Shown: positions 3,058 through 61,849 of the stretch, one piece after another
How positions within the stretch are numbered: position 1 is the stretch's first letter
Layout of the letters: each line of letters begins with the position of its first letter
Assembly (NCBI GenBank): GCA_965178125.1
Contig: OZ237735.1
Location: 248,001-312,000, forward strand
Direction: 5' to 3'
DNA length: 64,000 nucleotides
Origin: Bilabrum cf. latius
Taxonomy: Eukaryota
Made by a program: the position numbers and the translations under genes
The notes under the pieces: model-generated
Database searches by the model: none
The model's input: the letters and a program-made list of their open reading frames with translations, nothing else
What the model was told of the DNA's origin: nothing

Positions 3058-3062
3058 ACTTC

Positions 3063-37210: not shown

Positions 37211-40200
37211 ATGGCAGCATCTGCTGGCATGCCTGCTGCTCTGGCTCGGCAGAGAAGCTCTGCAGCGGAGGACGATCGCGGACGGCCATTCTTGCCGTCA
37301 CAACTACATTCTGCGTTGCCGAGCGAGGCCAGAATTGGCGATTCTCTCCCAGAGCATGAAGCTTTGCAAAGCATCAAGAAGTCTGCTAAACCTATCGAAG
37401 AAATTGATGCCACCGTATTCACTGTTGATCTGAACTCATCACTGGAACCCCATGCTGTCGCCGAAGCGTAGCGGCCTTCTCGGGTAGCCCACGTTCTCGA
37501 GCTTCAACCCCCTGTGAACAAGGTCGGGAGGCGCAGTCGAGACCAGCAAGTATTAGAGGCAGTGCTGCATGAAACTGCGGTCCGTCTCACGCTCGCAGAA
37601 AAACGAGTTGCCCAGCTGAAATCTATCAAGGTAGGATAGCTTGAATCTTAGGATGCGGGATCGAGCAGCGAGTAGGCATCACCAGAAGGAAGCGCTGCGT
37701 TCGATGAGATTGATGATAATGGACCACTATTGGACGCCAACGAGTTCTCGATGGCTTCGATAGCCAGTGTGGCACTCTCTTCCATGGAGACCGCTTCGCA
37801 GGGTGGTGAGAGATTCAGCATTGCAGGCTGGACCATGGATACGCGCTACATCAGGTGCCTAGAGTGTTGGTTCAGTTCCTACTACACACCGCAGATCCCC
37901 AACTGCTCAGCCGCGTGGCCCAACGCCTCGCCTCGCAGCTCGTCCGATCCAAGATGGGGCCGTCGAGCAGCACGACGGGCGCGATGATCATCGAGTCGGT
38001 GCGTGCGGCGGCAGGGCGCAAGTCCAGCGAGTCCGGAGGCGCAGCACCGTCGAGCGAGGAAAGCCTCACTCCGGCTCTCCTCGCAGCAGAGCTTCTTGTC
38101 CTGGCCCAGGCCGTCGCGAAGGATGACCTCATCGCCGCACTCTCCTCCATTGGCGCTCTGCTGCGATGTCCGGCCGAGGTACCTTGTAAAGGGACCGAGG
38201 CGAGCTCCAGCTCCGTTCAGATGGACCTCGTCGCTGCCTTTATGCATCGGCTCGGCACCTGGGAGCCGCGGGCGAACGGACAGGGCAGGCCCACCTGGCT
38301 GCACCCATCCCTCTGGCTCAAGTCGGCCGTCGTGGCGAGCTTCGAAAACCCAAGGGTCTAGGTGCGCACCCTGGTGGGAACAGCAGAGCAGCAGACCCCT
38401 GACTCGCTCGCCACCCAGGTGGGGCGGTTCATGGCGGTGGGCGAGGGCGTGCTGTTCCTGTCGGGCGGCGAGGACGAGCCGAGCATCGTCAGGCAGGGAG
38501 CCCTGGATCTGGTGGGTGGCACCGGGGGAGACGCCCTGACGGACGCGGGCAAGAAAATGATCCAGGAGCGCCGCGAGAGGCTATGTCTCAACGAGGCCGC
38601 GCCCGCTGGTGTGGAAGCGGGCCCCGGATCTGGCTAGCAAGCGAGCAGCAGCAAGTCACCCGCCTCTCTGCTGGACGAGTACATCCAGCGGCAGGTATCT
38701 GCGGCCTTTTCAGGAGCCGCGTCGGATGGCGTTACCATTGCTAGCCTTCTAGCCAACGCACCCGGGGCGCCTCTGGTGTCAGAAGAGTCGGCGGAGAAGC
38801 TGCGCGTGGCAGGCCTGGCAGTTCTGGGCGGCTGGCTGTATGTCCGTATCGGTGCAGGCACGCAAGCGACCGCGGCAGAGCTACCCAAGCGCGACAGAGA
38901 GCTGCTTTCGCGCGGGCCGATCATCCTCAAGGTGTCTATCGGAAACGATGCCACCGTCACTCAGGTACTCCAGGTGGATGCAGCCTGCGACCCAGACTGC
39001 GGCGGGCTGTGCACCGACGGAGAAGTCCTAATCGTACCCGTGGCGAAAAGTGACCATTCACAGCTGGTGCTCGTCTCTCCAAAGGCGGCTTCGCTCAGAG
39101 ACCGCGCCGCAGAAGAGGGCGGGGCTGCCAGTGGCGCCGGGGCTGATACCGCCAGCGATGCGGATCTCCTGCAAGCAGACCCGCTCATGACCCTGCCCTT
39201 CCCTGCCCTGCGGCGGGCCGCAGCGGCTTGGGGCGTGAGACCAGCGGATGCCAGCCGCTGCGTGGCCTTGCTCAGCGACGGTGTAGAGCTGCAGGTGGTC
39301 TGCCCCCGAGCACCTACCCAGGACGAGGGGCTGCTGCGGGCCTGCCAGATCAGCAAGTCCCACCCCGTCATGCTGCAGCTGGACCTCGCCACTGGTGACT
39401 TCTGCCGATCAGGGGAACAGTCCGCCTCGTCATATGCCAGCATGGACACGGACTTTGTGTTCGGGGGCGAGGCTGCGAAGGTTGTCTACAAGAGCGATGG
39501 CTCATTATCGGTCAGCAGTGGCCGTGCTGTCTCGCTGGCTGCTGCCAGCGAAGGGCAAATGCGGCTGCAATTCCGTTTCAAGCCCAGCTCTGGCGGAGAG
39601 CCCTTGCTTTCGTTTGGTGTTTGCCGCGCGCCGCTAGAGACAAAACAGGTGGACGTCAAGAGCGGCTACTGGTGCGACTAGCACGCCGATACAGCTGCCG
39701 TGTTTGAAAAGAGAGAGAAGCACGTGCAACCTGACCCTAGGTTTACGCTGCAGCCGGGCGACGTCGTCGAAGTTGTGCTCGACATCGGTGATGGAAGCGG
39801 GCCGGCGACGCTGAGTGTTGGCTGCCAGCGCTTCCCGTTGCGCTGCCTGACTCGAAGTTTGAAGAGGGAGGACGGCACAAAGTGGCATTTTATCATTGGA
39901 AGCAGGAGCCCCACTGGCTGCAGCGTCGAGGTTCTCGGCATCCAGCGCAGGCCCCACAAACGAGAGCACGGGGTGGTGGGTCAGCCTGTCGCCCAGCGGT
40001 GCGACGCAGCTGCGTTCGATCCCGCCAGCGGGCTCGCGTACGCTGCGGATGCAGTGACCGGTGCCATCCGTGTGCTTGCCCCGCCAGACCTCGCTGCACG
40101 CGACGCTATGAACGTGGTCGGGCGTTTGCACGAGATCTTGAACCGTTAGACCACAGCGTTGAAGCAAGATGCCTCCACGCTCGTTGCATCGATGCCTGGC

Positions 40201-43200
40201 GGGGTAATGACTCGCATGCTTGCCTCTGGCATGAGAAAGGCACACCTAGCCGCTGCATCGAGCGGCCGACCGCTCGGACTGCCGCCTAGGCGGTTCGCGC
40301 TGCTAGTCCTGAGCGGATTGGTGCAACGAGCCACGTATCTGACGCAGCCCGACGCGCTCCAGCCGCTCTCGATGCCATCCTAGCTTGAGACTCGGCAGTC
40401 TGCCGGGGACTCGAACCTTGCTGCTGCCGCTGCCGCTGGAGCAGAGTTATCCGCGCGACACGCCTGGGAACCGTGCTCCGACGCTTCCGTTGTGTCGACT
40501 GGCAGTCAGCTGGAGAAGCTTGTGCTCGCAGTGGAGGAGACGGAGTAGCGCGGCGATGTCGCGGCGTTCTCAATGCTTCTCAGCCTCGCCTGCAGCAGCG
40601 CATCAGATCTAGTCCGCGTGCAGCCTTCCGCCGAGGCCATGGATGCCCTCGCCGGTTCTGCGTGGGCGAGCCGTCTGCGTGCACTGCTGATGCGGATGGT
40701 TAGCGGCCAGGGCCCGATGATGGCTTCTTTGCTGCGAGATGGGCTGCAGGAGCCCAGGAATCTGCTCAAGTCGCAGGCTTTGTGGGCTCTGCTGCGCTCA
40801 TCCACGCACGACCCCCTCGGAATCCGGCCGGAGGAGCTTGGGGTGCTCGTGGCAGCCTCACTGAAAGACGTGGCTGGAGCGCTACGGGATGGAGGAGACG
40901 GTCACGGTTTGGACGCCTCTATGGTTGCCCAGCTGGAGGAGGTGCTGCAGTCCGCAGTCGCCACTCCGGCCCTCATGCTCTCGGCCGTGCAGTCCCTTGT
41001 GCCGAAAGAGATCGACGCAGACGAGACGGGTGGCGGCACCGCGATCGATGCCAGCGGTCTCGAGGACTTGTACGCGGTTGTAGCTGCGGTGCTGCGGGCC
41101 AACTCCAGGAGCCTAGTGCTGGCCGAGGACAGCACGCCTACAGACTTGCGCATACTCCCGGCCGCTTCTGTAGTGCTGCGGTTCTTTAGCAAGTTTGCGA
41201 GCAGCGTCGTGGCTACGTGCTGCAGCTATGCCTCCCAGTCTCCGCTTCGGGCGGGTGTCGCTGCCGCTCGCGTGCTCTCACTGATGAGAGGTGGAGCTGT
41301 TACGCTCATGGACGGGGCCGAGAGTTTCCTGGTCGGCGCTAGGGCGGGCACACGGACAAAGGCAGGCACGGAGCTGCCGTTTGATGCACTACGGGGCGGT
41401 GCTGCTGTCCCCGCCATGCTGTTGCACCAGATTCTGGGACTCTGTGATGCCGCCGTCGCTGTGTATGCGGACATGCGTGCGGGGATGCTGAACCAAGGCC
41501 TGCTGCCCGTGCTAGACATGCTGCAGGAGCGCCTGTCCCGCGTGAAGCACGCGGCAGGGGCCCTGTCCTTCGATTTCCTGGATGACGCCAAGCGAGCCAT
41601 CCGCCACTCTCGCAAGATGCTGGCACGGTCTCGGGAACTTGCGCTTGTGCTGATGATCGGGACAGCCCCGATTCGGCGGAGCAGGGTCATTCCGCCAGTC
41701 CTGCACGCGCTGCAATCGCCGCTGCTCTTTGGGGGGCTGCTGCATGACGAGGAGCAAGACAAGCTTACTCACAATCTCAGGACAACCCTAGATACTCAAG
41801 TGTCTGCTGGACGATCCGAGTTGGATAGCTCCATCTCAGCAGCACTCTCAGATCCAGCTCGAACAGCTGATTCGGTCGAGCCGCTGCCGGAACAGGCTGT
41901 CGGCTTTTCATCTTAGCCATCACGATAGGCGCGCAAGATGTTGCTGGGTCTAACCCAGCCGAAGCGCAAAGGGCTGTCCTCGTCTTTCCTAAAAGCCCTC
42001 AAGCTCACGTCCGCGTGCAGCGGCGTCACCCGAGGCTGCTCCAAGGAGCAGCTGCCTGCCAAGCTTTCGCTCGCTGCTGCTGCTGTGCTGCACTGCGGCC
42101 TGGCAGACGCTGCTCTGCGGCTTGCGCAAGCCTACCGCGCCGCCAAAGATGACGCGGAAGGACAAGCTAAGGCCGCGGCAGCGTGCCCCTCAGGCTTGTC
42201 TGTGATGTTTGCCCGCGTAGCAAACGAGACGATGAGGCGGATTGGCGAACTAGGCGCCACTACATCTCCTAAAGCGTTGCCTGTGGTTATTGCGCGTGCG
42301 AGATTGTTGCTGTCAGCCGCAGTTGTGTTCCCTAGAGGCGGAATGTCGGTGTGGAGCAGGGTAAGAGCGGCATTTCTCCACTTTGCCGGGCTGTCGCCGA
42401 CACTCCGGGCTGAGATCGCCGCTCGGGCCAAGGCCCAGGCAGTTGGAACAGCGGAAGACCAGCCAGCGATGGGTGGATCGACCGCCGTTGAATCATCGCA
42501 AGGCGAAGAGACTGCGAAGAAGATCGCAGATAAATCGGGTGGCTCGCTGCACACCGCGCTGCGCGCCGTCAGCAGTCGCAGGCAGGCGCAGGCGCTATCG
42601 AAGCTAGTGCGGGCAGCCAAGATTGGGAGCTCGGCCCAGCGCATGGCTGGATTTGACCCCGTAAATGCAGTTCTGGCCTTTGGGCTGAGCTTTTCTGCGC
42701 TGAGACAGCATGCAGTGGACGGAGGCGACGGAAGCGGGCCTGTTGAGGCTTCTGGCACAGATGCGGACGTGGACGATTCTGGGGTGTAGGCGAACGGCGA
42801 ATCAGATGCGAGCGATTCGACTGAAGCCGCTGACCCTCTTGCGCAGGGAGCACGGGAGGAGATGCTTGCGAGAACCAGGGCAGCGCTCGTTCGAGCTGCA
42901 GCGTTCCGCGAGACGGTCATCTCGCTGCGTCGCTTCATCGACCGTGGTGACGTCAGCATGGTCACGTCGACCTTGAGCGCCATTATCGCAGGGCTCCGCT
43001 TCCCTCTCGCGCGATCGGTGCTGGCAGGCAGCGGAGGAGGCGTGTCTGGCCTTACAGGGGCCAGCACATCTGGTGAGGGGCCTTCCTCGGCCTCGGAGGG
43101 CATCTCCAGCGGTAGCGGTCAGGCAGGGCGGATGACCGTCGTAGAGGGCGAGGTCACGATCGACGTGAATCCGCTGGCTGGTCTCGAGGGCTGCAGCGCG

Positions 43201-46200
43201 CACGCACGCGCAGAGCTTAGAGCTGCGATTCGGGAGGTGGTTCGTTTGGCGGTGCAGGTGCTCAAGTCAGGTGTCCCAACGGCAGAAGAAGGCGGTTCTC
43301 CTGGCCGTCTGCTGCAGCCAACGCCATTGACAAGGTTCTCAAGCGTCGGAGGTGCCAGTGTCGCAACCGTCGCAGACGAAGAGGAAGAAGAGGAGGAGCG
43401 CGGGGAAAAGGCCCAGCTGGCTGCCCGCCACGCCGCACTACTAGCCATCGCTCAGGATTACAACATTGGTGATGCGCCGATCCTGCTCGACAGTGGGGTG
43501 CTGCCGGTGCTTCGCGCGCTTGCCTTCATGCGAAGTTCAACTCCCTCCGCCGAGACTCGCGTATCGCAAAGCCATAGCACTGGCCCGTCTTCAGGAGCGG
43601 GCGCAACGGAAAGCAAAGAAGCCGATGAGGATAAGGGTGAGAGCAAGGAGGAGACCGCGGCTGGCGATGCCGGAAGCGAAGTGCACAGGTGGAAGAGCGC
43701 CCGGGTAGTCGCGTAGTAGACATATGACGACGCCATCCGTCGCGAGGTGGCTCCAGGTGCCTCTGAACTCGCGGGTGTAGCGACTGCTGCGCTTCGAGTC
43801 ACTGTCGTGCGTCTGGTTGGGATGGCCCATCAACTGTCTGCTGACGCCCTCAGCTCTGCATCAGGTGCATCCGCCGAGAGCGTGGCCCGAGTGTAGCGAT
43901 TGCTGTTCGCTGAGACGACTGAGGCGCTTGCCAATGCAGCTTGGAGGGCAGGGATGACTCGCCTTGCGCTGTCTGCGTATCTACGCCCGGCCTAGTCTCC
44001 CCCTGCCGTGGCTATCCAAGGAGCAACTCCCGCCGCATCCAAGGCAGGGAGCGCGGCACCTGTTGATGACGGTAGCGAGCTTGCTCTGGTCCCGTGCATC
44101 TCGAGCACAGAAGCAGTCCCTGCTTTTCTCGACAGTGCGCCTAGGATTGTTCCTGGTGTGCCTCTGTCGAGCCGCTTCACTGTATCTGCTTGGGTGTATC
44201 CTAGCACGGCCCCTCTGCACGAGTAGGCTAGGCTTGCGGCGCTGAGGGCGAGCGACTTGGCCTCTGTTGACTCTGGCATGGGATCTGGTCCTGAGGCGCA
44301 GAGCTTCGTGCTGGGTGCTCTCGTGAGGGCAGCAAGGGACTAGCAAGCCCAGAAAGCTGCCCGCAGCCGCAAGCTCGGATCCATCATTGTTGGCAGCGGG
44401 ACAAGCGAATCGATGGCAGCCGAGGGCGGCCTTGGAGACCTATCGAAAGCAACGCTGCAGTCGTTGCGGGAGCATGAGGTGCGGAGGGCGCTGGGTGGCA
44501 CTGACGAGGCAGTGGCTATCAGGCTCCTTGCAGGCGCCCCTACCAAGCAGGACCAGCTGATGGAGATGCGAGCAAGTCTTGCCCGCTATGGTATTTCTGC
44601 TGGGATTGGTGAGTTGCAGGACATGGCTGATAGCCTCGGCATCCAGTTGCAGCCGGCGAGAGCTTCACGGGCCGTCAGCGCCGCCTTACCTGCAGGTTCG
44701 CACAGTGCTACCGCAGCAGCGGCCGGCCCGCCCTGTACTTTTGACTTTGGCAGCATTGCTGGCGGAGCTGAACCGCTAGATGGCGACCGATCAGGATTTT
44801 TGACGACGGCGCGCAGCACTGTTCGCGGCTCGCACGCAATCAGCCGGGGAGTGCTGGAGTGGGACATCGAGTTTCTGCTGGCGGGCGACTCGCAGCGCAG
44901 GCTGATCGGTGGCATTATCCAGGGCAACCCACGATCTGTGGAGTACTAGAGCAACGGCGCAGGGTGTATCCTGGTTGATTTCTATGACGGGGAAAGGGTA
45001 ATCAATGGGTCCAGTAGCGGAAACGCCGAAGCGCGATTCCTGCCAACTGAGACAAGGCGATTCAGGCTCGACATGAACGACGGAGGGTCTCCTGGCGAGC
45101 TCAGCGTGAAACGCCCAACCTCCGATGATTGGGAGATAATTTCTAACAACGTGGCGCAAGGAGACTGGTACCCTTGCGTCAACTTCAGAGAGTCGGGGTA
45201 CTCGTGCAGGATCATGAACGTTAGTGACTCGAACTTAGTCAGCGCCACCGCGCCAGCGGTCGCTGTTAACTCGCAAACTGCTACAACAGCGTTCGGCAAC
45301 CGGCTCACGGGCATCGTGGGCACTTTTGACCCTCGAAGGTCAGCCGAGATGGTCTCTGCCTTCCAGAGCACAAAGGGGAGCGGAAGCATAGACTCCACAG
45401 ACCCGAGTCTGTTTGAAGCCTCTGGAATCTGCGCGGCAGCTGCAGTTGCAACTGCTTCGGATGGCGTGCTGGAATGGACCGTCGAATGCCGGGCCTCGAG
45501 CGGAGACCACATCGTGGGGGCTATCAGGGAGGACCTCCGCAATGCTTCCATCCAGCAGCGAGGGGTTACTATCCGCGGGAGGGACGGCAGAGTGTACCGA
45601 GATGGGCGCAGGCTTCGCCTGGAGCACGCTGCCGACCTCAGGTTCCATAGCGGGGACTCAGTCACATTCCGACTCGAGCTTGGTGACGGAACCAAGGACG
45701 ACGGTGTGCTGAGCGTTCGCACGTCTGGCGACTTCGTGAAGGTGGTCAGTGACCTGGAGAAGGGTCCTTGGCGACCCATGGTCATGACGCACCTGCCCAC
45801 TTCGACTGCTACTTTCCACATACTTGACGTCTTCTACAGAAGCAGCATGTCAGTGATTCGCGTGAAGGGAGGGAGAGGTGCTGCCGCCAGGTAGCTCGTT
45901 GCAGCACCAGGGGTAGCATCAAGGCGCGGTGCGGTTGCAAGAGGCACGACGCTCACTAATGAGCTGCACCAGGCATCTAGGAAAGGCGACGGCGTGTTCA
46001 AGGCCATGAACCGAGTCACAACATCAAAGAACTTCTTTGTTCGTTCCAGGGCCGGCGTGACAGAAGGCGGCATGGAGTGGTCCATCAAGTATGTGGACAA
46101 CGACACTGCCTGCAACGTTGCATTTGGGGCCATCAATGGAGACCCAAGGAATGCTGCGTTTCGCTCGAGCGACAACAAGGCAGTGCTTATCTGCGGATCG

Positions 46201-49200
46201 ACGGGCAACCTATTTATCAACGGCAGCTCGCAAGACGCGGACTCTACAAGGCAATTCAGCCCTGGTGACACGCTCTATTTCCAGCTGCGGGTTGGCGACA
46301 GTTCAAGGCCGGGGACTCTGCATGTGCGGAAGAACATGGGCAGAAAGATCTGCCTTAGTGATGCTCTCGAGGCGGGTGGGGAATGGCACGCCGCTATTGC
46401 ATGCTTCGGCACCAGGCAAACAGTTGAGTTGCAGTCTGTCATGGAGGTACCCATCGGGTCGCCGGCTGCGGATCTCGGCAGCGGGTCGGATGCGCTTGGT
46501 GGCCCAGGATCATCTGCCACCCTCGCATAGCTGATGAGGGCTCGCGCGATTCGCGAAGCTGCGCTGTTGCCAGACATTTCTGCGGGTGGCAGCGCGGTAT
46601 CTAACATGGCGGAGCAGCCGCTTAGCACCGAGTGGGACTGGGACACTGCGATGGGCCCAATCCTGCCGAACGAAAGCCCATCGAAGACAAGGTGCAGGCT
46701 CAAGAATGATTGCGCCATCAGGGCAAAGGCTCGTGTATCATTTGGCAAGGCTAGGTGGACTATTCGGTACCTGGAGGGGTCCGTCAAGCACCCCAAGACT
46801 GTCATGGGTATATTCCGCGGCACGCTAGACACCGCGGAATTCGATAAGCCAGGGGGAGCGAATCACTATGCAATTGTGAACGGTAGCAACTCTGGCAGGC
46901 TCCTGGTCGAAGGCAAGGACTGTGGCACTGTTGCTGAGCGCCGCTGCAGCCCTGGGACTGATATTTGCTTTGAGCTTGATATGGACGCTGGCGTTCTCAA
47001 GATGAAGGCGGCACGTGGCAAGTGGGTGATTCTTTGCGACCATGTGCCCGCAGGGGAGTGGAGCCCGATCCTTTACACGTTTGGAAAATCGGAGAAGGTT
47101 GAACTGGCCGACTTTTGCCACGTAGAGATAGCAGGCGGAGTCGATGAGGATCCAGCCGTGCCGAGCTCAATTAGCGACGCCCCGAGGCGGCGGCGAGCAA
47201 CTGGCGCCAGCGCTGGCGCTGCTGGGTCTTCTGCGAATGAGCTAGCTGGTGGATCTCCTCCGCCCGACTTGGTTGCACAGGCTGCAGGGACAGAGCTCGC
47301 CGCGCTAGTGGTTGACGCCTCTGTTCCTGTGCGAAATCGTCTCCGGGCTGCCATGGCGGCCCCTGTGCCGCAGGGCGTGGACGAGCTATTGGACGTATGC
47401 AGCGAGGGCTAGGCCGATTACGAGCTGGACCTGAAGGCCGCAGAGGGCGTGCTCCTGGAAGGCGTGTCGACGGTGTCCGAGTCCTCCTACAATCCACGCA
47501 TGTACGAGTCTGAACACAACTACCGCTCCAACATGAACGGGATTGACCACACAGCTAAATTTGATCATACCAGGCAGGTCCTAGTGAGCTTTACCGACTC
47601 CACTCGGACTGAGGGCGGGTGCGATATCGTGACGATCCTGAAGGGCGATGGCTCTAGTCGGTCAAACCGTTGGGGCGAAGAGATGAGCGGGTCTTCCTTC
47701 CCTGGGCAGCCTGCCCGGAACAATGCGCCTCTGGTCGTGGAGGATGACAAGTTTTGCGTGCATTTCCGATCTGACGGCAGTGTGGAAGAGTGGGGCTACC
47801 GCCTGTTTGCTTGGCCAGTGTCTAACAGGCCGGAGGTGTGCGACGGTGCTGTCGTGCTGGAGAGCCCGCACCCCTACTCAGCCAACATGGACTGGCAGCA
47901 CACCATGAAATTCCCTGGCGCGACATCGGTCAAAGTGTCCTTTGACAGCCGAAGCAGAACGGAGGGTGGCAACGATCTTGTCCGAATCCGACAAGGCGGT
48001 TCACGAGCAACGGTGCGTGGTACGTATTCTGGAACGGATTTCCCCGGGTTTGGAGGCCGTCCCGATCTAGAAATCCATGGTGACACTGTTTCGGTCTCGT
48101 TCAAGTCGGATGGCAGCAACTAGGAGTGGGGCTGGAAAATGACTCTCACGCCGCAAGGCCTAGAGTCTGCCGACTCTGCTCGTTTCCGGCCGAAGTCTGA
48201 AGCTCAGCGCGCAGCAGCTCTAGCCAGGCATGGTCTTAGCGGAGGGCTGCTCGTCGCTCCCGGCATGCTGCCAAGTACCTGCAAGTGCATAGCCGCCGCA
48301 GTTCGCACTGAGCTCGGAGAAGCCAGCCTTGCCAGCACTTCAGGAAGCACTCGAAGCATTGCATCGACAAGCCTGCTGCCGGCTGCAGTGAGTTTGTCTT
48401 AGCTCGGGGCCATCTCTACAACGCACCTGGGGTGGTCGGCGAAGCGTGGACTTCTTGCTGCAACGTTCGAGATAGGTTCTTCGACGTGTGCCGTTGGCAT
48501 CGCTGCGACTGAACTGGGCGAGAGTCTCACAAAGTACAGCTCCGAAAAGTCAAAGACAGCCGTAGTACGCGGTGACGGAAGCGTGTTTCGCAATGGCAAA
48601 GCTATCAGGTTCATTGCTTCGAGTAGCGCGTCGAGCAAGGCCGGCCCCAAAAGCCACACCCCCCTGTGTCCGTTTGGCCCAGTTCGATTCGGCCCTGGTG
48701 ACCTTGTAACTGTCGTGATTGATATGAACGATGGAACCAAGCCTGGATGTGCGGCCGTTGCCGTGAGCAGGGGACCCACCGAGGGCTGCGGACCTTTCGT
48801 GCTGACTTCTTCCATCCCGGCGGGCCGCTCTGTTCGTCCGGTCGCTTTCGCTGGGGACACGACAACCATCACAGTGGTTGAGCTAGCAAGAGATGATCCG
48901 GAGGCAAGAATGAACGCAGCAGCCTCTGTTGTTCGCCGAATCACCGAGCAGAGCTGCTCGGGTGACTCGACAGTCGTGACAACGGCTGCGAAGCGCCTGC
49001 TCAAGGACGAAGGGCGTGCTTAGATCGAGGCCAAGCCCAGCACAGCTGCACCTCATGCACTGTCTACGGGCAGGTACCCGACGCTTGCGGGGCTCGGATT
49101 GCTCGCTGGTCTCGCTGCGGATGCCGTCTCTCGATCCACGGAGGGGAAGGAAGAAACCGATGCCGCGTCTGCTACGGCCGCAGGTGCTGCAGCAGGCGGG

Positions 49201-52200
49201 GCAGCAGCTAGTGGTACCTCCGAATCCGTTGGACCCATCAGTGTTTTGGCGAAGGAGAACGTGTGTGCTCACACGGTGGCGCAAACCAGGTTTCTCCTTC
49301 CGGGAGCTAGGGGGGCTGTAGCTGGGTTACATGCTTTCATGGAAGGTCACTCGGTGCTTGAGTGCGTTTCTGTCGGCGACCGTCCTACCGGCGAGACGCT
49401 GTTGATTGGCGTGGTAGATAGCAACTAGCAATTCACTGCTGTTCGAATGAGCGACGGGGCGGTGCTCGCGGGACTGCAGGACGATGTGCTCTCCCCTGAC
49501 GGCGATGCAACCGTGGCTGGCTCCGTGGATCTTGGGGCACCCCAGGTGCGCGACGGAACCGCTGTCCGTCACATCCGTTTCGCTGCCTTACCCGAAGACA
49601 TTCATGCGGTTGATATGGCTTCAGGTTCCAATGTGGCTGTTGGGCTCTGGATTGATGGTGTATTTGCGGTCAAGCTGGCCTCAATTCCTGCCGGTGTCAA
49701 GTACCAGTGCACGGTAGCTTTCACTTCCATTGCCATTGACTCAGGGGAAAGAGCCGAGTACGAGGCAAGCTTGGATGAAGACGTCGTGGATCTCTATCTC
49801 TAGGGCCCACCCGTCGTGGGTAAGCCGAGGGTGATTGTCGAATCATTGTACACCGGTCAAGCAGCTGTGGATATGAAGGAATTCGAATCCTCCTCTCTCG
49901 GCAGGGATGCAAACGCACAGCCTGCGCAGCTCGGGCAGCTGTCTCGAGGTGGCGTGCTGCTGTCTAAGCGTTACGATCCAGGAATGATTCCTCGCACCGG
50001 AGCTAGCCGTCCATTGCAGGCAATGGGTCTCCGGTTGCTACCCTCTCGATAGCTTGCCTACGTTGCAGTGCCCCATGCTACCGAAGAGAATGCCTCAGCA
50101 AAGGAGGCACACCATCCAGTCGTGCTGCTGTCCCCCGGTGCGCTGCGTGGCCAGCAGTGGAATCACGTTGCAGTGGTACATGATGGTTTGCAGGCCAGTG
50201 TGTGGATCAATGGGATACAGGAGTGCTCCGCGCGCCTGCCTGTTGCGCTTCAGACCCCAGCTGTTGCACCCACATCCATGGTCGACGCGAGATTGCAGGC
50301 GATGGAGCTAGCAAAGCTGCCTATTCACGAACTCAGACAATCTCTACAGCGACTGTGCGGCAGTCTAGGCACGCCAGCTGTGACTGACCCCACAGATTCG
50401 AAGCATGTGCTTGTAGCAGCAACTTCTCACGACTCGAATAAACTGAAGAGCTTGTCGTCGCTGGGGAGAGCACCCGTCAAGATTTCGGGCGGCTCTTCAC
50501 TAAAGGCGGCGTTGCCTATCGGGTCTGATGGAATCGTGGGCCTACCGCAAGCCCTTCTGGGAGCAGGGACCGGGAAATGGTATTTCGAGGTACGGATCAC
50601 TCCTCATTCCGACAGCGGCACTGACAATGCTCCAAATCTTGCCGTCGGGCTGGTTCAATCGGGCAGCACGCTAGAGACGGCAGAAGGTCAAACCCAGCTG
50701 GGAGGCCCGGGCGTGTGGGCCGTGCAATTCGGAAACAGCAAGGCAGCCTGTCAAGCCGTTGCGGAGGGCAGTGGTAGGCAGTATGGCTCTCCGCTAGGTG
50801 GTGAGCGCATTTTATCGGTGGCAATTGATGCTGACCGGGACGGTTAGGTCTCGTTTGGGGTGAACGGCAGCGTATCACCCGGTTTTGGTGTGGCATTCGC
50901 CCGTACTCTCTCCGGAAAAACTGCCGTTTTCCCGGCAGTGCAAGCTGCAGGGTACGATGTGGAGTTCTTGATCGACCCTAAGGGAGCGCCAGGACCAGCT
51001 TCCTGCTCCTGCGAACCGCCTACTGACCATAAGCCGTTGGGTGTCCTCTTCGGGGCGCCAACTGGTACTGCCATCGACGAAAGGTCGCTCGCTGGTCTTG
51101 ATGCAGCGGACCTGAGGCGTGAGGCAGAGAGCCGATGCATCGGTTTGAGGCCTTCATTCTTCATGATTGGGGGCAGTAATGCCACTAAAATCCCGTAGAT
51201 TGCAAACAAGCCCGCATCGAGCGAGCTGGTAGTGTCAGCTGACGCTTCGAGCAAGCGCCGCAGGCTTGCTTGCTGCCACACGAGCTCAGTGCTTAGCGAG
51301 CTTCTCGGCTTGCTGCGGCCAGGCCCTTCGTCTGGTGCTGGCGCGGATGATGCGGATCCGAGCGGCGCCGTGGCTGCAGTTGTCGCTGCTAAAGAAATCG
51401 CCGAGCGGCTAGCCCCTTGTGGGCCGATGTCGGGCGCTTGGTACCTGGAGATTGATGCCTACGGCCCTGTAGAGGCCATGATGGCGTCTTTTGCCGGCTA
51501 TGCGTGGGTAAACGGGAGTACAGCGTCAAGTGTTGACGATTACGAGCAGATAGGCCGCGACAAAAAGCCGGTTGCCGTGTGCTTTGGCGACGGATCGATA
51601 GAGACCAACACAGCGGGGTTGCCTCGTCCCGTCCGACCACTCTCGGAAGAGAAGCGCGCTTAGACTACGCTGTCGATGCTGCTTGATGTGAACGCAGAAA
51701 GGGTTGTGGTATGCATGCTGGATTCCGCTGGCGCTGCAAGTGGGGAACGAGTCGTACCTCTGCCCGGACTAGCAGCTGGTGCGATCCTATCAGGAGGTGC
51801 TAGACTCGCCTTGGACGTCGCACCCGAGGTGACAGTATCTCTTCGTTTAGGCAACGGCCTGGGGAGCAGTCTTGTTGGTCAGATCCCGGCGGGGGCCCAG
51901 CCGTTTGGCGACCTGTTCCGCCCGGGACCGACGCGTGCTCACGCAGCACCTGCAGGTTCGCAGGAAGACTTCAGCGAGGCGCTTGCAGTGCTCGCGGGCC
52001 CACAGTCTGCCGCACCAAGTGTGTTCAATGATGCACCGATGGTGTTTGGACGCCCCTCCATGTTTGCGGGGAAGGCCACATCGTTCGGTACGTTCGGTAG
52101 GTCAACCACAGAGGCTGAGCGCAAGCACGAGAACCGAACACATGCTGCATGGGCAGGAGCTGATGCTCTAGTGTCCAAGTCATGTGTGATGCCCTTCCAT

Positions 52201-55200
52201 GCTGCTGCTGCGGAAGTGATCTAGTCCATGAGCTCTCCAGCTGCGCTACGAAACCTCTCCAGCACCCTTCGCATAAACGGGAGCGAACTGCGCTCAGCCG
52301 CTGACCCGCTGATCGAGTTCGACTGCGGCGTTGGATTTGGCCTACCTGCGTCCATTGCACTTCCTGAAATGCCGGAGCCGCGTCGTAATGCTGCTGCTGC
52401 TCTCAGCGTTGCAGCCGCCGCAGCTGCCGGGCCGCTCAGCAGCCTGTTCCTCGGCAGCGTGGAGGCACTGTCGTCACTCCTGGCCGTCTTCTTTGGTAGA
52501 GATCCGCAGGCGAGCTTTGCCGCTGGTAATGTCCTGGCGCGGGTGCTGCCGGATACGGAGCCTCAGGCTGCTGACGCGGCAATGCAGTACTTCTGGCACG
52601 CTGGCAGTGACGGCATCGTGCAGGCCGCGGATGCTCGCGAAGCTCCCAGGCATGCCAAGTCTGGTTTCGTTGCCGCTATGCTGGCTCGCGCAGGGCAGCC
52701 ATTTTGCTCGGCCGCTGGATTCAGACCGGCTGGAGAAATTATTAAGGACCCGTTCATTGCGCAGGGATTTGCGCAGCGGTGTGCCAATCTGATGCAGGTG
52801 CTCTTGATTTCTGTACAGAGTGCGACCGGGCCTGTGGCCAAGTTGTGGCGGGAGGCAATTCGGTCTTGCCTGGTGGATGCTCTCCGCACGGTTCCCGATG
52901 TGCTAGGTGGCATGCGCTCTGCGAGCCTGGAAGACTCTTCGAAATGGACCCGCGTGTCTGCCGTGTGCGGGGCGCTTATCGTGTGCGGTGCTGACCTCAA
53001 GCTCCTTCGAACTGGTTCGCAGGTGCTCATGTCTAGTGCCAGCCAGGCTGCTAGCAAGACCGACACAGCTCAGAGTTAGACTGGCATTCTGGTGTTGCCT
53101 CTTTCTGCGGTGGAACAAGGAGGACCTGGGTATCGAGTTGCAAAAGCAGCGGCCGACGGTGATGCCGCAGATTCCGAGGGGAGCAAGACTGCGTTGCCGA
53201 GCGCGTACATGGCCGACGCAGACGTGCCTTGTGCCAGTGTTACGCTGGCACCCACTCCACACAAGTTCATGCAGTAGCTCTTCCGCGCAGTGGCTCATGA
53301 TTCCGATGCTGATGAAAGCAGCATCGTCGATACCGTGCTGCGGGCTGCTGCAGCAGCCGCGCAGGCAAGCTGCGCTGATAAAGACAGCAAAGAGAATGAC
53401 AGCAGCTCGTCATAGTCTATTGAAATGTCAGACAAGCAGGTTCTGGACCGTTGCACTTATACATTTAAGCACACGAGTGGAGCCGATGACCGGGCCGTCG
53501 TGCATGACGTGCCTTGCCATGAAGCAGACCGGGTTCTCATCCGCATTTCCAAGAATGCCGGCACTGATGGCGCTCCATTGCCCCCCACGTCTGATGGCAT
53601 CTAGGTATTGGTCGGTGGAGTTCCCGTGGTAGGTAGGAATCCCGTCGAGAAGGCGCCGGAGGAATCAGCGGGTGGAGGGGAGGTCACAGTGAAGGTACCA
53701 TGGGCCAAGGCTGCTATGCCTGCGCGTGATGTGCTACCCGAGGTTTTGCAGCTTGTGCCCGTAGTGCGAGGACCAACGTGGCAGAGTGGCAACGCCGATG
53801 GCGGACCCGGGTCGCCTGGCTTGGCTCTGTCGATGGAAGGCACCCAGGTGCAGGTTATGTGGGAGAGGGGCGGTGAAATGACGACGCACACGTACGACTA
53901 CGGCACCGACCGTTTCGACGTGGTTCCCATGGAAATTTCCAAAGATGTCTTCGATGAGCGCCAGCGCGTGAAGGCTGCTGCCGCTGTGGCACCGGATACG
54001 TCTGTCGTGTCTCCCGATGAAGTGTACGCATTTGGGCAAAGCGCAGCAGCAGCGGGTATCAAGATCAAGATGCAGAGACCTTCTCTCGCTAGTAAAATGC
54101 CTGGTGAAGCCGACGCCCCTCACGAGTGCCACGTTATTGTGGAGAGGTATGTCTCCAGACAGGAGGCCAGAGAGATTGCCTCTGGGGGCGCTGCGGGAGC
54201 CTCCAGGCGGCTGCAATGCGTGCCCCGCGCGTTGCTCCGTTACATCTCCGCTCTAAGCCTTGATGCCCTCTTGTCTGCCCCGCTAGGACGAGGAATGAGC
54301 CTGGATGCAAGCCCGAACGCCGTACGGGAGCTGGCGAGAGCTCTTTCTCGGGCTGTCAAACACGCTTCTGGCGACACAGCAGTGTCCGTTGAAGTGTCTT
54401 CTCTCAACCAAGTGCGTCTGCAGGAGCGACTAGACCGTCTGCTGCTTGCGACTGGTGAGGGACCAGCTGTTCCTCGCACGAGCCTGCAGGGCGCGAGTGG
54501 CAAATTTGCACCCGAGACGGTAGTTGCAGCGGGCAAAGCTGTGATGAGCACGGCAGCAGTGGGTGAGAAACGAAGCAGCGAACCCCCGTAGCCGCCCGGT
54601 CACTCTGCAGCCACAGCTGGGCAGTACGCTGAAGCTGGCACGGTTTCGCAAGCTACCTACGGTGGCATCAAGTCTGTCAACCTGTCGAACGTATTCGAGA
54701 TATCGGCTCTCGGGTCGTGGCTCGTGCATGAGCAGGAAATTGCAACTGTAGAAGGGACTGGTGACGTCGATGTAGCAGCCTTCGACCCCACCGAGCATCC
54801 GTCTCTGGAGGTATTTGCGTCGGAAGCAGCCGCAGCAGCGAGCATGAGTGGCGTTATTACAGACAAAGAGCCAGCCACGTCGATTCCAGATTCCTAGGAG
54901 CCGAGCATCGCTGATGGGATTGAGGGCTGCTCGGGACTGCGCTGCCTCGAGGCACTCGAGGAAACCCTGCGAGTCGCAGAAGGCCGAGTCTACAGCTCCG
55001 CGCTGGCCAACCTGCTGCAGAGCCCGTTGGCTGCAGCACTCACTGAGATAGATGCGGATCTCTCGGCGGGCGAAGCCGCTAAGAAGAAGAAGGCGATCCA
55101 GCTGCTGCGGTCCACGACTGCTTTCCTTGAGGATTCGCTCAGTGCTTCCACGTCAGCGAGTTCACATGCTGACGAAGGCAGCGCTGCCACCTCCAAGGCC

Positions 55201-58200
55201 CACTCGATGCAGAAGCTTAACGAATCAATCAAGAACAGGCTGGAGGATGTGGCACGCTCAGCAGAGGACATTGGTGGCACTATCGCTATGTATGCAGCTG
55301 CATTTGCGCTCGAGAAGAAGATGGAGTCTGTCACAAGCGGCCGATAGGTCGATGAGCAAGCAGCCGACACCCTGCTCTCAGCTATGTGCATGACAGCCTC
55401 TAACCTATGCGAGGATGTAGCTCGCGGCAATGGCATGCATTGGGAGACAGCGAAAGGTATGGTTGAGGTCCTCCTGAGTCCTCGCAGCTTCAAGCTTGCA
55501 ACTGCAGCATTTAATGGGGCTACAGCAGCCAGCGGGGGCGATAGCATTGCGCTTCAGCTTGGGTCGCTGCTGCGTGTTGCAGCTGTGGCATTTGAGCCTG
55601 GGGCGTCTGCACCGTCTTGCCTTCGAGGTGAATCGCTACAGAAGGTAATGTCTTGCATCGAGCCGCTGTCTGGACGAGTTGCAAGCACAATCAAGGCAGC
55701 CTCAGGCGGTATGCTGTCTGGCAATTCCTCGAAACGTCCCTCTTTCGACGCGCAAGGCGGTGTTCTGAAGATGCTGCCCCCGGCAGCGCAGCATCTTGGG
55801 GAACAGGCGGCTCAGCTCGCCCTCGGTGTAGAGCTGTTAGGCCCCTACTTGATGGACAGCAGCAGCGAAGGCCCGGCCAGCGGGGCGGGCGCGGACGATC
55901 CCACGGGTTCTACAGTGACAGAAGCAGAGTTTGCCCACAACTTTGTTCGCAAAGCCATGTATCCGCTCATGATGCTACCTGGATTCCAGAGTCTCGTCGC
56001 GTTTGAGCGGGCGGCGATGGATCTGGCAGCGGGGCGAGCTCCTCATGCCATGATGCTGAACATGCTGCCTGGCTTTTTGCTGAGCAAGTTGTCGCGTGTG
56101 GTAGATCTGACCCCAAGGGATGGGGTGAAGGAGATAGTTATCCCCGGATCTTCCCAGGTGCGCGTGCTGATGTCGCCCGATACCTCCGTCGGCAGCGGTT
56201 ACCTGGAGGTCTCGAACTCTGCCGGTGTCACTGCCCGGGTCGATGGTACCGCGGCTCTACCCGGCGGGGAAATGAGGCTGCCAAGCGGGTTCAGCCACTT
56301 GGCAGGCGGCACCACCGCATTTGCAGTGGCCCCTCTCGCAGCTGACGACGCGACCCTGTCGCTCACTGCAGGCAACGGTAGGCTCTCCAGCTAGTTTGTG
56401 TAGGAGGCACTGCTAAAGAAAACCCCGCAGAGGCATGGCAGCAGTCGTGATGACGGCCTTTCTGGAGTCACGCCGTCGTCAATCGGAAAGCTTGACCCAG
56501 CAGACGCCCGTCTGGTCAACATGGAACCGAGGCAGTCCGTGGGGTTGGACCAGAAAGCAATGAAAGTGCACGAAGCATCTGGTACAACGAGTGTGGCTGT
56601 GCCTCGCCTCGCCGTGAGTGCTGGCAAGTGGTACTTCGAGGCAGACCATAGTACTCTCGATTTATTTGACGCCAAAACAATCGCCACGGTTGGGATGGCG
56701 TCGGCCTCGTTCAAGCCAAACGGTCCAAGCAACCAGACTGCTGGCAAGTGCAAAGGCAGTTGCGCTCTGGACGTATCAGAAGGAGTCGTTTTGTGCGACG
56801 GGGCAGTCACTCGTTGCTCTGCCAAGCAGGGACTTGGCAGTGCTTCGACCGTGGTGCAGGTGGCCGTCGATGCCGATGCGAACACTTTGACGTTTGGTTG
56901 GAACGGTAATCTCAAGGCCCGAATGTCTGAGCCAAGTGCTTCAGCCAAGATTGCTGGGACAGTGTACCCGGTTGTGTCTCTGGGGTCGAGTGAAGTGGTG
57001 AGCCTGCGACTCGGCGGGAACGCCAGCACAGCTCTCTAGCACGAACCGCCTGAGGGGTACCAGCCCCTGGGTGCTCTCTTGCGTCGCGTACGAGTAGCTG
57101 CCACTAAAGCTCCACGACTTGCTCCCATCCCATATCCGGGATAGGACTGTGTAGTGGTCGAAGACAACGGCCGGGTTGTTCGAACTCAAGGACGGCAGTC
57201 AATTCGGACAGCATGGGTGCCCGAGCTCACGGTATCTTCTGGCAAGTGGGTGTATGAAGTGAAAGTAAGCTCCAGCGGCTTTGCGCAACTGGGTTGGGTT
57301 GGAGCTGGATGCTCTAGGATTAATCTATCCACGCGCGGTGTCGGAGATGACATCAACTCTACTGCATGGGACGGATCTCAGCGTCGCGTTTTCCAGGGTG
57401 CGCAGGGCTTTTCTGCTGGCGGTCGCTGGAGTTCCGGGGATGTCGTGCAGTGTTACATCGATTGTGACACCCGCCAGGCCTTCTGGCGCTTGAACGGCTC
57501 CACCGATAGGATCGAGTGGCCGGGCACGCCCGTGCCGGGCGAAGTGCCCCTTGCGCCCGGGGTGTCCATGGATCACTCGCAGCAGCTTCTCGTGAGGCTC
57601 GGCGGCCCCAGGTCTGACCCCTTGTCGATCGAGCCCATGGCCGGATACCGTCCCATAGGAGAGTCTGTGCTGGCAACGGGTGCAGGCTCGCCTCGATCGA
57701 TGCCGAGGATTTCACCTGCAGCGTATCCCGGGCAGGGTGAGATTGCGATCGAGAACGGCGGGCGGCTCGTCACGGTGACTGGCGGAGCCGACGTGCAGAC
57801 TGCCTGGGTGCCCGAATTGCAGGTGTCCACCGGAAAGTGGATGTATGAAGTGCAGCTCTCCCGTGGCAGGTATGCGCAGCTGGGTTGGATTAAGCAAGGC
57901 TTGCAGGGCATCAATTCCACCAGTCATGGAGTAGGGGACGTTACGGAGTCCACAGCGTTGGACGGGTCCCAGAACTATATCTTCCAAGGGGGGCAGGAGC
58001 ATCGTATTCGAAATTCGTGGAGTTCCGGGGATGTCGTGCAGTGTTACATCGATTGCGATACTCGGCAGGCCTTCTGGCGCTTGAACAGCTCCACCGATAG
58101 GATCGAGTGGCCGGGCACACCCGTGCCGGGGTCTGGCCCGCTGGCGCCTGGAGTGTCCCTTGACGGTTCAGAGCAGCTGACAGTGAGGCTCGGCGGCCCC

Positions 58201-60873
58201 AGGTCTGACCCCTTGTCGATCGAGCCCATGGCCGGATACCGTCCCATCGGAGAGTCTGTGGAGTCAGAATCAGCCGAAACAGCTGACGGCCCGTCATTCG
58301 GTGCGAGCTCTGGGACTGACCCTGACCAGCTTTTCGAGATGCTGGCAGAGTCAGCTGAGCGAGTGGATCCTGCCGAGCTCGTTGCGGACGCAGAGCGCAA
58401 CACCCCCGGCGGGGGAGGGACGGGCGTAGAGGGCAAGCAGAACCTACTTTCGGATGATCTAGGAAGCCGTAAGTATCTTGATATGAGCTTCAACGGGGCG
58501 GTGTGGATGAAGATGGGCTTCGCGGATGGCTAGTCGCGCGCCGTGACCAAGGTCTTGATTCGATCTGCGAACGACTGCGAGGAAAGAGACCCGAAGCACG
58601 TTAAGATATTCGGGCGGAATGTGCAGTCGGGCAGTGAGTGGAAGCTGCTGGCGGAGGACTAGGACGTGTTCTTCTCGGCGAGGCACAGCATTTACACCAT
58701 CGACATCCCAGAGGACAAGGTGTGCGAGTGCACTGAAGTAAAGCTGCAGGTGCTTGCCACGCGTAGAGAGTGCGGCATGATGCAGGTGAACATGATTGGT
58801 ATGCACGCTGCGAGTGCAGGCAGCTACGATGCGTACAAGAAAGCCGTGGCAGGCGACTCAAGCGATGCAGGCGCCCCTTTTGAAGGGTACGGACTCCCTG
58901 TGGCAGGAAACCGCGTCACGATTCGCTGGGTGCAGGAAGATGGAGACGACAGCGGCGGCGATTCCCGAAAGCTGCGTGTGGTCGTCGTTCCCATGCTTGA
59001 GCCGGATGCGATCAAAGCGCACATCAACGGGCGATTCCAGGGCGAGCTTGAGCAGCAGGCAACGGATCGTAGGCAGGCAACGTCCCGCATTCAGAGGGAG
59101 GGCATCCGATCGGACCTTATGCACGTCTTTGAAGGCGGCGGGACGGGAGGCAGCGCTGGTACTCGTAGCGCTTCTGAGCACGCGTTGGCACGGACTGCAT
59201 ACAGAGAGCTCTTTGAGTTCCTGTAGACCGGGTTTGCAGGCACGGAGGCTGACGAGGAGCTGGTGGACTTGCTGGACGACGCGAGCCGGCGGAAGGGCTG
59301 GAACGCGGGCAAACTGTTTTAGTGCTCGTGGCAGGAGGTGCGGGATGCGTCGCAGCTGAAAGAATCACAGTTCCCCGCGCTGGCTGCTGTGCTGAATGAG
59401 GGCAATGCGGCCGAGGTGCCTGGATAGGAAGGTGGCAGGCAGCGAGTCGAAGCTCGGTTGATGCTGGTGCAGCAAGCAAACCAGAGCGTCAGGAAAGCAT
59501 TACCGTGGATCGACACCACCCGCGCTGGCGCAGACCAGGGCTCGGCAGCTTCGCGACTTGCGAGCATCGCTCACTTGATCGCGCTGGTCCTGAAGAAGCC
59601 GCTATGGGACCGTTGCTTGGAGAAGACCCAGAGCAACTCGAGGCAGTTCAACTTCACCATCGATCGCATTGCTCCGACCACCATGCTGGGCGGGGGCAGG
59701 CAGGACTCGGAAGGCAGGCACACAGTGTTCTCTCAGGCATTCCGGGCCATGTTCCGCAAGAAACCGAGCGAGCTGCGCGGCGGCCGCGGCCACCGCATGT
59801 TCGAGGTTAGCTTCCGGAACGAGGGCGCTATCGACGCGGGTGGCCCGTACCGAGAGGCCTACACGCTGCTCGCTGAGGACCTGATGAGCGACCGAATGAC
59901 TCTCATGTTGGATGCATCCAGGGCGCGACAAGCGGCGGGGACAGCGCAAGCATCCGGCGGAGCTGCTAGCGATGCGTCCGGGCCGCCGCCGCTGTTGAGG
60001 CGGCAGTCGACGGGGGCAGAAGCCGAGCAGTCGAACCCGCGCGTGGCCAACCCCGGGGCGAGCTCCGAGATCGAGGGCCGGCTGTTCAGCTTCCTGGGTC
60101 GGTACATGGGCATGGTGATCCGCCAGCAGATCTACGTGCCCATGCAGTGCGCGTCGATTTTCTGGAAGGGTCTGACGGGGGCGCGCTGCGACGAGCTCGA
60201 CCTGCAGCGGAGCGACTACGAGCAGTGGAGGCGCATCGATCAGGTACGCAGGGACGCGGGGCGACTCCCCGAGGAGGACTTCCGCAGGGAGCACCCGGAT
60301 TTGTGCTTTGAGGTACCCGCATCCGACGGGGCCATGGTGCAGCTGGTTCCCAAGGGAAGGGAGAGGCAGGTCACGAGGGGCAACGCGCACCGCTGGGCGG
60401 ATCTCGCGCTTCAGTACCGCCTGGAGCAGGAGCAGAAGGAGGCCACGGCGCATGTGCGCGGCGGGCTGGCCACCATCGTGCCGGTGCACCTGCTGCCTCT
60501 CTTCAGCTGGAGGCAGGCCAGGCGACTAGTGTGCGGGGAGGACCACATCGACATCGCTGCGCTCCGACAGAACACGAGGTACGAAGGGTACGACAGGGAC
60601 AGCCCCGTGATCCAGCGTTTCTGGTCGGCGATGGAGGCCATGCCTGATTCCCAGCGGAGGGCCTTTATCCGCTTTGCGTGGGGTAGATCGACGCTGCCGT
60701 CGGTGGAGGGCAGGTGGTCCGAACCCTTCAAGATCACGAGGCGGTCGGGTGGGGGGCTCCCGCACGCGCACACGTGTTTCTTCCAGATCGAGCTGCCGCA
60801 GTACGAGACCGACGAGGAGATGCGGTCAAAGCTAGCCTGGGCGTGCGCCGAGACGTCCATGCTGGAGGGATGA
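37211..60873 (+). CDS. Giant HECT E3 ubiquitin ligase with multiple SPRY, CUB-like and MIB/HERC2 domains; exons 37211-37805 and 37895-60873; ~7,857 aa, ~49 in-frame TAG
   Basis: About 32 listed ORFs from 37855 to 59458 share frame +1 and all but the last end in TAG. Gaps contain only TAG. HECT motifs F.NEGAIDAGGPYRE, FIRFAWGRSTLP, LPHAHTCFFQIELPQY. MIB/HERC2 VVRGPTWQSGNADGG. CUB-like ESPHPY..FRSDGS..EWG. SPRY GKWYFEV. Ends TGA TGA. An 89-nt GTGAG..CGCAG intron (37806-37894) joins the frames. Confidence 0.9.
57130..58260 (+). repeat. Tandem duplication of a SPRY-domain coding unit, period 591 bp
   Basis: WSSGDVVQCYIDCDTRQAFWRLN.STDRIEWPGTPVPG and VRLGGPRSDPLSIEPMAGYRPIGESV occur twice, with near-identical DNA in those blocks. 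Confidence 0.9.
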
Positions 60874-61088: not shown

Positions 61089-61849
61089 TCAAAGCATTCC
61101 AAACTTGGCAAGCTTGGGCGCGATCACGGCCCGGCAGTAGCCGTGCGTCTTGCCGTTCTTGTCCCAGAATTTCTGATGGTAATCCTCCGCCGCGTAAAAC
61201 GGCTTTGCATCCATCAGCTTGGTCTTGAGCCGGCCCCCGAGCGCCTTGTCCCATTCGCCCATGAGTGCCTGGACCTCCTTCTTCTGCTCCTCCGAGTGGG
61301 CCCAGATGCTCCCCATGTACTGCGGGCCCCTGTCAGCGCCCTGCCCACCGCCATCGGTGGGGTCGTGCGCCTTGTAGAAGACTTCCAGCAGACCGCGGAG
61401 GCCGCCGGCCACCTTCTTGGGGTCGAAGTGGACGTGCACGACCTCCACGTGCCCCGTGTCACGAGAGCAGACTGTCTCGTACTTGGCGTCTGCGGCTGAG
61501 CCACCCATGTATCTGCGTGAGCCGGGAAACACACTGGTGCAGCCTTCTTGCAATGGCCGTGCGAAGCAGGCGTCCGATGCGGATCGAAAACACTGTCTCA
61601 CCCAGACGTGGCATCCAAAACACCGTTGGTTTTGGACATGATAGCTTCTAAGCACCAGAAGCAACCACCACCAAGAGTTACCTGCGTTGTTGGTAACCTT
61701 GGTAGGTACGGCCGCTAAAGTTTGGCAAGACAAGATCGATGTGCAACTGCAGCCGGCCAAGGCATACTTCTCACTCTCTGGGATCCATCCTCTTCAGTCG
61801 CAGGGAGTACTTCAACTTCTTTCGCAGTAGAAGAAGCGGCAGAAGCCAT
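61089..61849 (-). CDS. msrA: Peptide methionine sulfoxide reductase A; exons 61849-61775, 61681-61602, 61512-61089; ~192 aa
   Basis: VTLGGGCFWCLE, GVLDATSG|YMGG, YETVCSRDTGHVEVV, HDPT...QGADRGPQY, FYAAEDYHQ. Two GTGAG..GCAG introns in phase, TGA stop. Confidence 0.95.

Follow-up and report, generated by a model that had tools for sequence, protein, structure and literature searches.

What does the codon TAG mean in a gene that carries it in frame 45 times? We asked this of a stretch of 64,000 nucleotides (nt) from Bilabrum cf. latius (positions 248,001 to 312,000 of contig OZ237735.1, assembly GCA_965178125.1), which we call the window. It contains a giant intronless gene for a SPRY/CUB/MIB_HERC2/HECT E3 ubiquitin ligase (Table 1 gives the coordinates of this and other features). 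When the window is translated with the standard code, no stop-to-stop open reading frame exceeds 1144 amino acids (aa). From the sequence comparisons described below, we consider it very likely that the window belongs to a GC-rich nuclear genome where UAG, formerly a stop, now encodes glutamine (Gln, Q), with UGA terminating the genes we see and UAA not used as a sense codon.

The frame of the giant gene has 45 TAG and no TAA or TGA, compared with 73, 17 and 140 (TAG, TAA and TGA) in one of the other two frames and 54, 36 and 179 in the other. Taken together, the three big genes of the window have 72 in-frame TAG in 13,731 codons and no other stop. The giant protein matches the Pfam families HECT (1e-53, complete and at the C-terminus), SPRY (1.7e-37, in four stretches) and CUB (3.7e-6); its match to MIB_HERC2 is weak, at 9.4e-4, and falls under the Pfam cut-off. 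TAG is an ordinary sense codon in these long, homology-supported frames. Contigs from four public runs (three studies) that cover 40001–60000 have no letter that differs from the window and no TAG/CAG variants among them. Because the four agree letter for letter, the TAGs are not assembly errors. A joint from 42442 to 55874 in the run contigs was taken as an artefact (its shorter side is only 24 letters).

In public protein sets, the giant ligase of this organism and of a sister species is found only as pieces of 46–359 aa that were cut at TAG, often with a false Met from GTG. A full-length orthologue search with the giant protein returned only two animal HERC2 proteins with 25–28% identity, and scans of genome contigs and of viral contigs gave no relatives of the HECT region. 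The closest named ligase homologue is a partial protein from Symbiodinium sp. KB8 (a dinoflagellate assembly), in the cluster of a 32%-identical match, and it gives no placement.

The sister species does allow a close comparison. It is available as predicted proteins cut at stops, from two strains that are 98–99.6% identical to each other, which came from an exhaustive search with the last 1200 residues of the giant protein and from two word-indexed searches. The sister fragments are 84–97% identical to the window, and at ordinary aligned sites the two are identical at 2067 of 2269 (91.1%). There were 16 comparable sites where the window has a TAG or the sister a stop. Six of them are shared: the sister fragments end at the window TAGs of residues 3438, 4618, 4805, 5090, 5846 and 7139. 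Another eight have Gln on the other side, four with a window TAG against Q in the sister and four with a sister stop against a window CAG.

If TAG is read as Gln, 14 of the 16 sites are identical, which is what one sees at ordinary sites (P(X<=14)=0.42 at the 91.1% background). With serine (Ser) or Lys in its place the count drops to 7 of 16 (P=2e-6 at the same background), and with any other residue to 6 of 16 (P=1.5e-7). A one-step codon model also placed Gln ahead of the runner-up Ser, by a factor of 10^0.7 to 10^6 (kappa 1–4, omega 0.1–0.6). The first-pass annotation, which was made from the letters of the window alone, had named Glu, Leu, Tyr and Trp as the partners that would count against Gln, and none of them stands opposite any of the 16 sites. 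Because only Gln makes the TAG sites as conserved as ordinary sites, this comparison, with one further site described next, supports the assignment of UAG to Gln.

The further site is in a more distant relative, a contig from the JGI metagenomes (L001; 4056 bp, 56% GC), whose orthologous HECT C-terminus is about 58% identical to that of the window. Its HECT frame has five TAG, no in-frame TAA or TGA, and ends with TAA right after the conserved ...SMLEG. Opposite these five TAGs the window has R, Q (CAG), R, D and Q (CAG). The MsrA gene adds one more, so that three of six in-frame TAGs in L001 are opposite a CAG for Gln in the window. One of the three is at the catalytic-Cys motif of HECT. The one in MsrA falls on the Gln of the YHQ motif, which is conserved: all three of the PDB alignments printed have Q there (3pil, 3pim, 2j89; AEEYHQ). 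Because L001 has in-frame TAGs, including the one at the YHQ Gln, and a HECT gene ending in TAA, we read the reassignment as common to a clade that spans at least the divergence between the window and L001, with TAA as a stop in that clade. In close and distant relatives, TAG exchanges with CAG for Gln as a synonymous codon does. The order of HECT and MsrA, tail to tail, is kept in both the window and L001 (where MsrA is at 2388–3010 on the minus strand). MsrA also has an upstream exon in both, with the GCFWC active site in the case of L001, so this gene bears an intron.

Several observations weigh against Gln. Three of the 16 sister sites have a different residue (S, S and K), one S being found in only one strain, at a shared site. 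The sister is known from predicted protein fragments, and its stops are presumed to be TAG, in line with four of the five non-shared stops being on window CAG codons. The remaining three of the six L001 TAGs are opposite window R, R and D, and the wider family has S70, Q28 and T25 of 141 in the HTCFF-Q column. Columns of distant homologues at the window TAG sites (148 representative matches) are variable and uninformative. A crude neighbor-composition test did not favor Gln, which ranked 18 of 20; the test was non-discriminating, with only Ala and Cys more than about 5 nats behind the top residue, and poly-Q tracts bias it. There is no tRNA with a CTA anticodon in the window or L001, where we found only Lys-CTT, Tyr-GTA and a truncated copy of Lys-CTT. 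Finally, no TAA was seen as a gene end among the window genes, although it ends the orthologous HECT gene in L001.

The first-pass annotation had already arrived at UAG=Gln and table 15 of NCBI. That reading holds up, chiefly through the sister species and L001 and not through the three internal comparisons on which it was based. The first of these was a 591-bp duplication in the SPRY region, with the TAG at 57142 opposite the CAG at 57733. The two codons do share a frame and are separated by exactly 591 nt, and both repeats and blastp confirm the duplication. The repeat search found three direct-repeat families, each spaced 591, with a core (57427–57669 against 58018–58260) that is 88% identical. 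Over 651 nt aligned without gaps at an offset of 591, the SPRY copies are 63% identical in nt and 58% in aa, and blastp aligns them at 68% over 175 aa (E 6e-82). However, this one TAG/CAG column is modest evidence, because the flanking residues match at only 9 of 20. The broader claim that internal duplication by itself identifies the residue was not borne out: four TAG sites in the giant protein give seven paralogue pairings, with Q twice, S twice, and E, D and R once each. Identity between the SPRY copies is patchy. Two 60-nt bins reach 95% (57472–57531) and 100% (57592–57651) and most others are around 50%, which suggests that the copies have undergone gene conversion or that constraint on them is very uneven.

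The other two comparisons stood in part. In a PG-rich repeat gene that the annotation called SHIPPO, the TAG at 32719 is present and FGTS-TAG-RG can be matched to FGTSQRG, but this match was a selected one, because the sister units vary (E, K, D, K, R, R, Q, A) and the unit most similar to the one with the TAG (..DRQARDMPGPG) carries D. The pairing of SDGSN-TAG-EWG with SDGSVEEWG between two CUB-like domains is also present, but the suggestion that Glu is therefore the main alternative found no support. There is no E at the 16 sister sites, and the E in the paralogue carries little weight because the column at TAG 48121 is variable in 77 distant homologues (N23 T20 V17 S10 Q2 H2 E1 G1).

We next consider the other stop codons. 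In the window, three gene ends are anchored by homology, and all three are TGA: those of HECT (a tandem TGA TGA at 60871–60876), phosphomannomutase (PMM; Pfam profile matched to 219 of 221) and MsrA. In all nine frames that we took as genes, the first stop other than TAG is TGA. UGA terminates the window genes seen. The three big genes have 90 CAA and 426 CAG, so alongside 72 TAG we would expect about 15 in-frame TAA if TAA were Gln, and there are none in 13,731 codons. By this count TAA has no sense meaning in the window, and we rejected code 6 (UAR=Gln). UAA is probably a stop, as in table 15.

The alternative that survives best is an ambiguous UAG, which would be Gln within genes and a context-dependent terminator at some gene ends, as in Condylostoma and Amoebophrya sp. 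Kv. There are only five homology-anchored ends (three in the window and two in L001), and the absence of TAG from all five is too small a sample to exclude TAG terminators. In addition, two of the TAGs in a 3521-codon frame are no more than 65 codons from its end. Nevertheless, all five anchored ends are TGA or TAA, and there is no in-frame TGA or TAA, unlike in known ambiguous codes (those of Condylostoma, Amoebophrya sp. Kv and Blastocrithidia); the in-frame stops of Amoebophrya sp. Kv are 58% UAA, 32.3% UAG and 9.7% UGA (PMC12005148). This differs from the window, and we dropped Amoebophrya sp. Kv as a candidate source of the DNA. We regard this alternative as improbable.

Somewhat less probable still is a standard code with U-to-C editing, in which TAG would become CAG in the mRNA and Gln would appear in the protein all the same. 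The exchange of TAG and CAG among relatives is equally compatible with this. However, editing would have to hit the first base of TAG every time, in 72 or more nuclear codons, and we know of no precedent for site-specific U-to-C editing on such a scale. The contigs of runs that we guessed to be RNA keep their TAGs, where the run type is only a guess. Reassignment of a stop to Gln, on the other hand, arose many times (PMC5304391, PMC11687900).

Among other residues, Ser comes closest to Gln, and we give it very little credence. There is a precedent for UAG=Ser in print, in the green alga Scotinosphaera (PMC8271138). Ser is opposite a TAG or stop at two sister sites (the window TCG at 54703 and the S of one sister strain at 55345), the TAG at 57037 has S opposite it in both internal paralogues, and S is the most frequent residue in the wider-family column at the HTCFF-TAG of L001. 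But with Ser only 7 of 16 sister sites would be conserved, and eight replacements between Ser and Gln would be needed when there is not one Q-to-S or S-to-Q replacement among 202 ordinary differences between window and sister. Against Ser, too, is the L001 TAG in MsrA, which falls on a conserved Gln (YHQ motif).

We find it just as hard to believe in Glu, Lys, Leu, Tyr, Trp or pyrrolysine. An E is opposite TAG in the CUB-like paralogue, a K is found at one sister site, and there are other eukaryotes whose codes read UAG as Leu or as Glu (PMC5304391; PMC11687900). However, the 16 sister sites have no E, L, Y or W partners and would be identical at only 6–7 (P<=2e-6), and the CUB-like paralogue has a GAA codon, two changes from TAG, in the variable column discussed above. 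That the TAGs are true stops, in pseudogenes, through assembly errors or with rare read-through, has next to no chance of being right: public gene calls do cut the genes at every TAG, but all 72 in-frame stops of the three genes are TAG even though TGA outnumbers TAG off frame, the downstream domains are intact and conserved to a relative at about 58% identity, the TAG positions are partly common to relatives and partly swapped with CAG, and the sequence is identical in four runs.

Reassignment of UAG to Gln would need two changes, to judge from known cases. A tRNA-Gln(CUA), which a single anticodon change separates from tRNA-Gln(CUG), would decode UAG and not UAA, and recognition of UAG by eRF1, whose gene lies outside the window, would be lost or weakened. 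Decoding of UAG would have to be efficient and nearly complete in an mRNA with 45 UAG, because with leaky read-through of 45 UAG in 7687 codons only about 1% (0.9^45) would be left. The TAG and CAG of the SPRY copies would then be one instance of neutral drift between CAG and TAG, in this case between two copies within a gene.

Table 1. Positions in the window of the genes, repeat copies and codons discussed in the text.
Feature	Position	Strand	Remarks
Giant intronless gene, SPRY/CUB/MIB_HERC2/HECT E3 ubiquitin ligase	37810..60873	+	7687 codons stop-to-stop, first ATG 37954
SPRY tandem duplication, copy 1	57112..57702	+	591-nt unit, repeat search and blastp
SPRY tandem duplication, copy 2	57703..58293	+	591-nt unit, repeat search and blastp
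TAG, residue 6445 (YPG-TAG)	57142..57144	+	just upstream of SPRY copy 1; 57133-57144 = TAT CCG GGA TAG
CAG, Gln 6642 (YPG-Q)	57733..57735	+	one 591-nt period downstream of the TAG; 57724-57735 = TAT CCC GGG CAG
TAG, residue 4463	51196..51198	+	Q in both sister strains (EIPQIASKP)
TAG, residue 5594	54589..54591	+	Q in both sister strains
TAG, residue 7171	59320..59322	+	Q in sister fragment P0012 (KMFQCSW)
TAG, residue 7206	59425..59427	+	Q in sister fragment P0012 (MPGQEGG)
TAG, residue 5696	54895..54897	+	K in sister; mismatch to Gln
TAG, residue 5846	55345..55347	+	fragment stop in one sister strain, S in the other
CAG, Q4985	52762..52764	+	fragments of both sister strains stop
CAG, Q5994	55789..55791	+	fragments of both sister strains stop
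CAG, Q7274	59629..59631	+	sister fragment P0012 ends
CAG, Q7478	60241..60243	+	sister fragment P0006 ends; P0004 begins at next codon
TCG, S5632	54703..54705	+	fragments of both sister strains end; mismatch to Gln
CAG, Gln of HTCFFQIELP, HECT catalytic-Cys motif	60784..60786	+	TAG in L001
CAG, Gln of AEDYHQKF, window MsrA	61173..61175	-	TAG in L001 (AESYH-TAG-KF)
TAG in second CUB-like domain (SDGSN-TAG-EWG)	48121..48123	+	sister fragment stops here too; paralogous codon 47785 = GAA
TAG in PG-rich repeat gene, FGTSXRGDKF	32719..32721	+	D in the most similar repeat unit
PG-rich (SHIPPO/STPGR-like) repeat gene	~31766-33671	+	exons in three frames, introns present
Open frame, 3521 codons	12460..23025	-	19 in-frame TAG, 0 TAA, 0 TGA; low-complexity protein without Pfam match
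Open frame, 2523 codons	24492..32063	-	8 in-frame TAG, 0 TAA/TGA; alpha/beta-hydrolase domain
MsrA gene	61092-61793	-	ends TGA; C-terminus conserved with L001

The window is eukaryotic nuclear DNA, GC-rich (65% GC) and with canonical GT introns. The introns are 100–300 nt long and of the spliceosomal type, and the window has flagellar-type and housekeeping genes, as in multi-gene chromosomal DNA. No viral hallmark gene was found among the Pfam matches of the window proteins. Ciliate genomes are generally AT-rich. Besides the genes already mentioned, the window encodes a PHOSPHO-type phosphatase, a leucine-rich repeat protein and a ricin-type lectin, and PMM is one of the genes with canonical GT introns. 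The name SHIPPO/STPGR for the PG-rich repeat was assigned by eye, and Pfam has no family for it at E<=0.01. The protein of the 3521-codon frame has a 9-residue unit 12 times in tandem and long AP and PGR repeats, and in one place a poly-Q run leads directly into a TAG (QQQQQQQ-TAG).

There are two tRNAs in the window, tRNA-Lys(CTT) and tRNA-Tyr(GTA). The 5' two-thirds of tRNA-Lys(CTT) is duplicated, as a direct repeat of 639–701 and 2985–3057 about 2.35 kb apart. The copy at 639–701 diverges past the anticodon arm (Rfam gives it 34.5 bits and ARAGORN missed it), and so it is a truncated pseudo-tRNA at the border of a segmental duplication. We rejected this third Rfam match as a suppressor tRNA, as it is the truncated tRNA-Lys(CTT) copy. 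The translations of 3–881 and 1311–3113 also have long stretches in common. The tRNA-Tyr(GTA), at 24024–24096 on the plus strand, is 73 nt long and intronless by both ARAGORN and Rfam; nuclear tRNA-Tyr genes of eukaryotes usually bear an intron.

The same 20 kb of sequence (40001–60000) is present in contigs from three studies, in runs whose labels name three different organisms. Depth over this region is about 28 in one run and 0–6 in the others. The organism may often accompany other samples or contaminate them.

In the literature that we covered, few eukaryotes have UAG alone reassigned to Gln, namely Iotanema and three ciliate lineages, with Ser instead in Scotinosphaera (PMC5304391, PMC11687900, PMC8271138). 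The nuclear code of the fornicate Iotanema spirale has UAG=Gln with UAA and UGA as stops, so that, as here, UAG is decoupled from UAA, and the proposed mechanism of a tRNA-Gln(CUA) and an altered eRF1 is the one we infer (PMC5304391). In contrast to the window, with TGA at all three anchored ends and 65% GC, the primary stop of I. spirale is UAA (PMC5304391). The phyllopharyngean ciliates Hartmannula sinica and Trochilia petrani, and Protocruzia tuzeti, use the same table, with UAG as Gln and UAA and UGA as stops, but they prefer UAA (PMC11687900), while the window has 65% GC, giant genes and nothing specifically ciliate-like that we could see. Scotinosphaera (Ulvophyceae), with UAA as a stop, is likewise a non-ciliate eukaryote with reassignment of UAG only (PMC8271138). 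Ser was the second-best candidate here but, unlike in Scotinosphaera, it is rejected, with 7 of 16 conserved sites against 14 of 16 for Gln.

Code 6, in which both UAA and UAG are Gln (many ciliates, hexamitin diplomonads, Dasycladales and other ulvophytes), is also a change from stop to Gln with a suppressor-type tRNA-Gln. Phages that use code 15 (TAG=Gln), and likewise giant viruses of the GVMAG catalogue (PMC13524828), read TAG as we propose for the window; unlike them, the window has spliceosomal-type introns and flagellar-type and housekeeping genes. In the part of the literature that we could search, we found no report of UAG=Gln in a eukaryote that is GC-rich and not a ciliate, and one may still exist in print. 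The code itself is NCBI table 15 and already known; what is distinct is its setting, in a genome of 65% GC that uses TGA stops and does not look like that of a ciliate.

It is possible, though we would not count on it, that the window organism, its sister and L001 form an undescribed GC-rich, non-ciliate clade which reassigned UAG alone to Gln independently, under GC and not AT pressure, which uses mostly UGA stops, and whose members are candidate hosts of giant viruses with TAG=Gln. If the clade is undescribed, this would be another origin of the UAG-only change to Gln, in a genome of 65% GC where the genes seen end at UGA, and it would bear on the decoupling of UAG from UAA and on the codon-capture and ambiguous-intermediate models. 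Giant viruses with this reading of TAG would also gain a cellular lineage as a possible host. Annotation and protein-family analyses of this organism and its relatives need table 15, because calls made with the standard code systematically fragment the genes.

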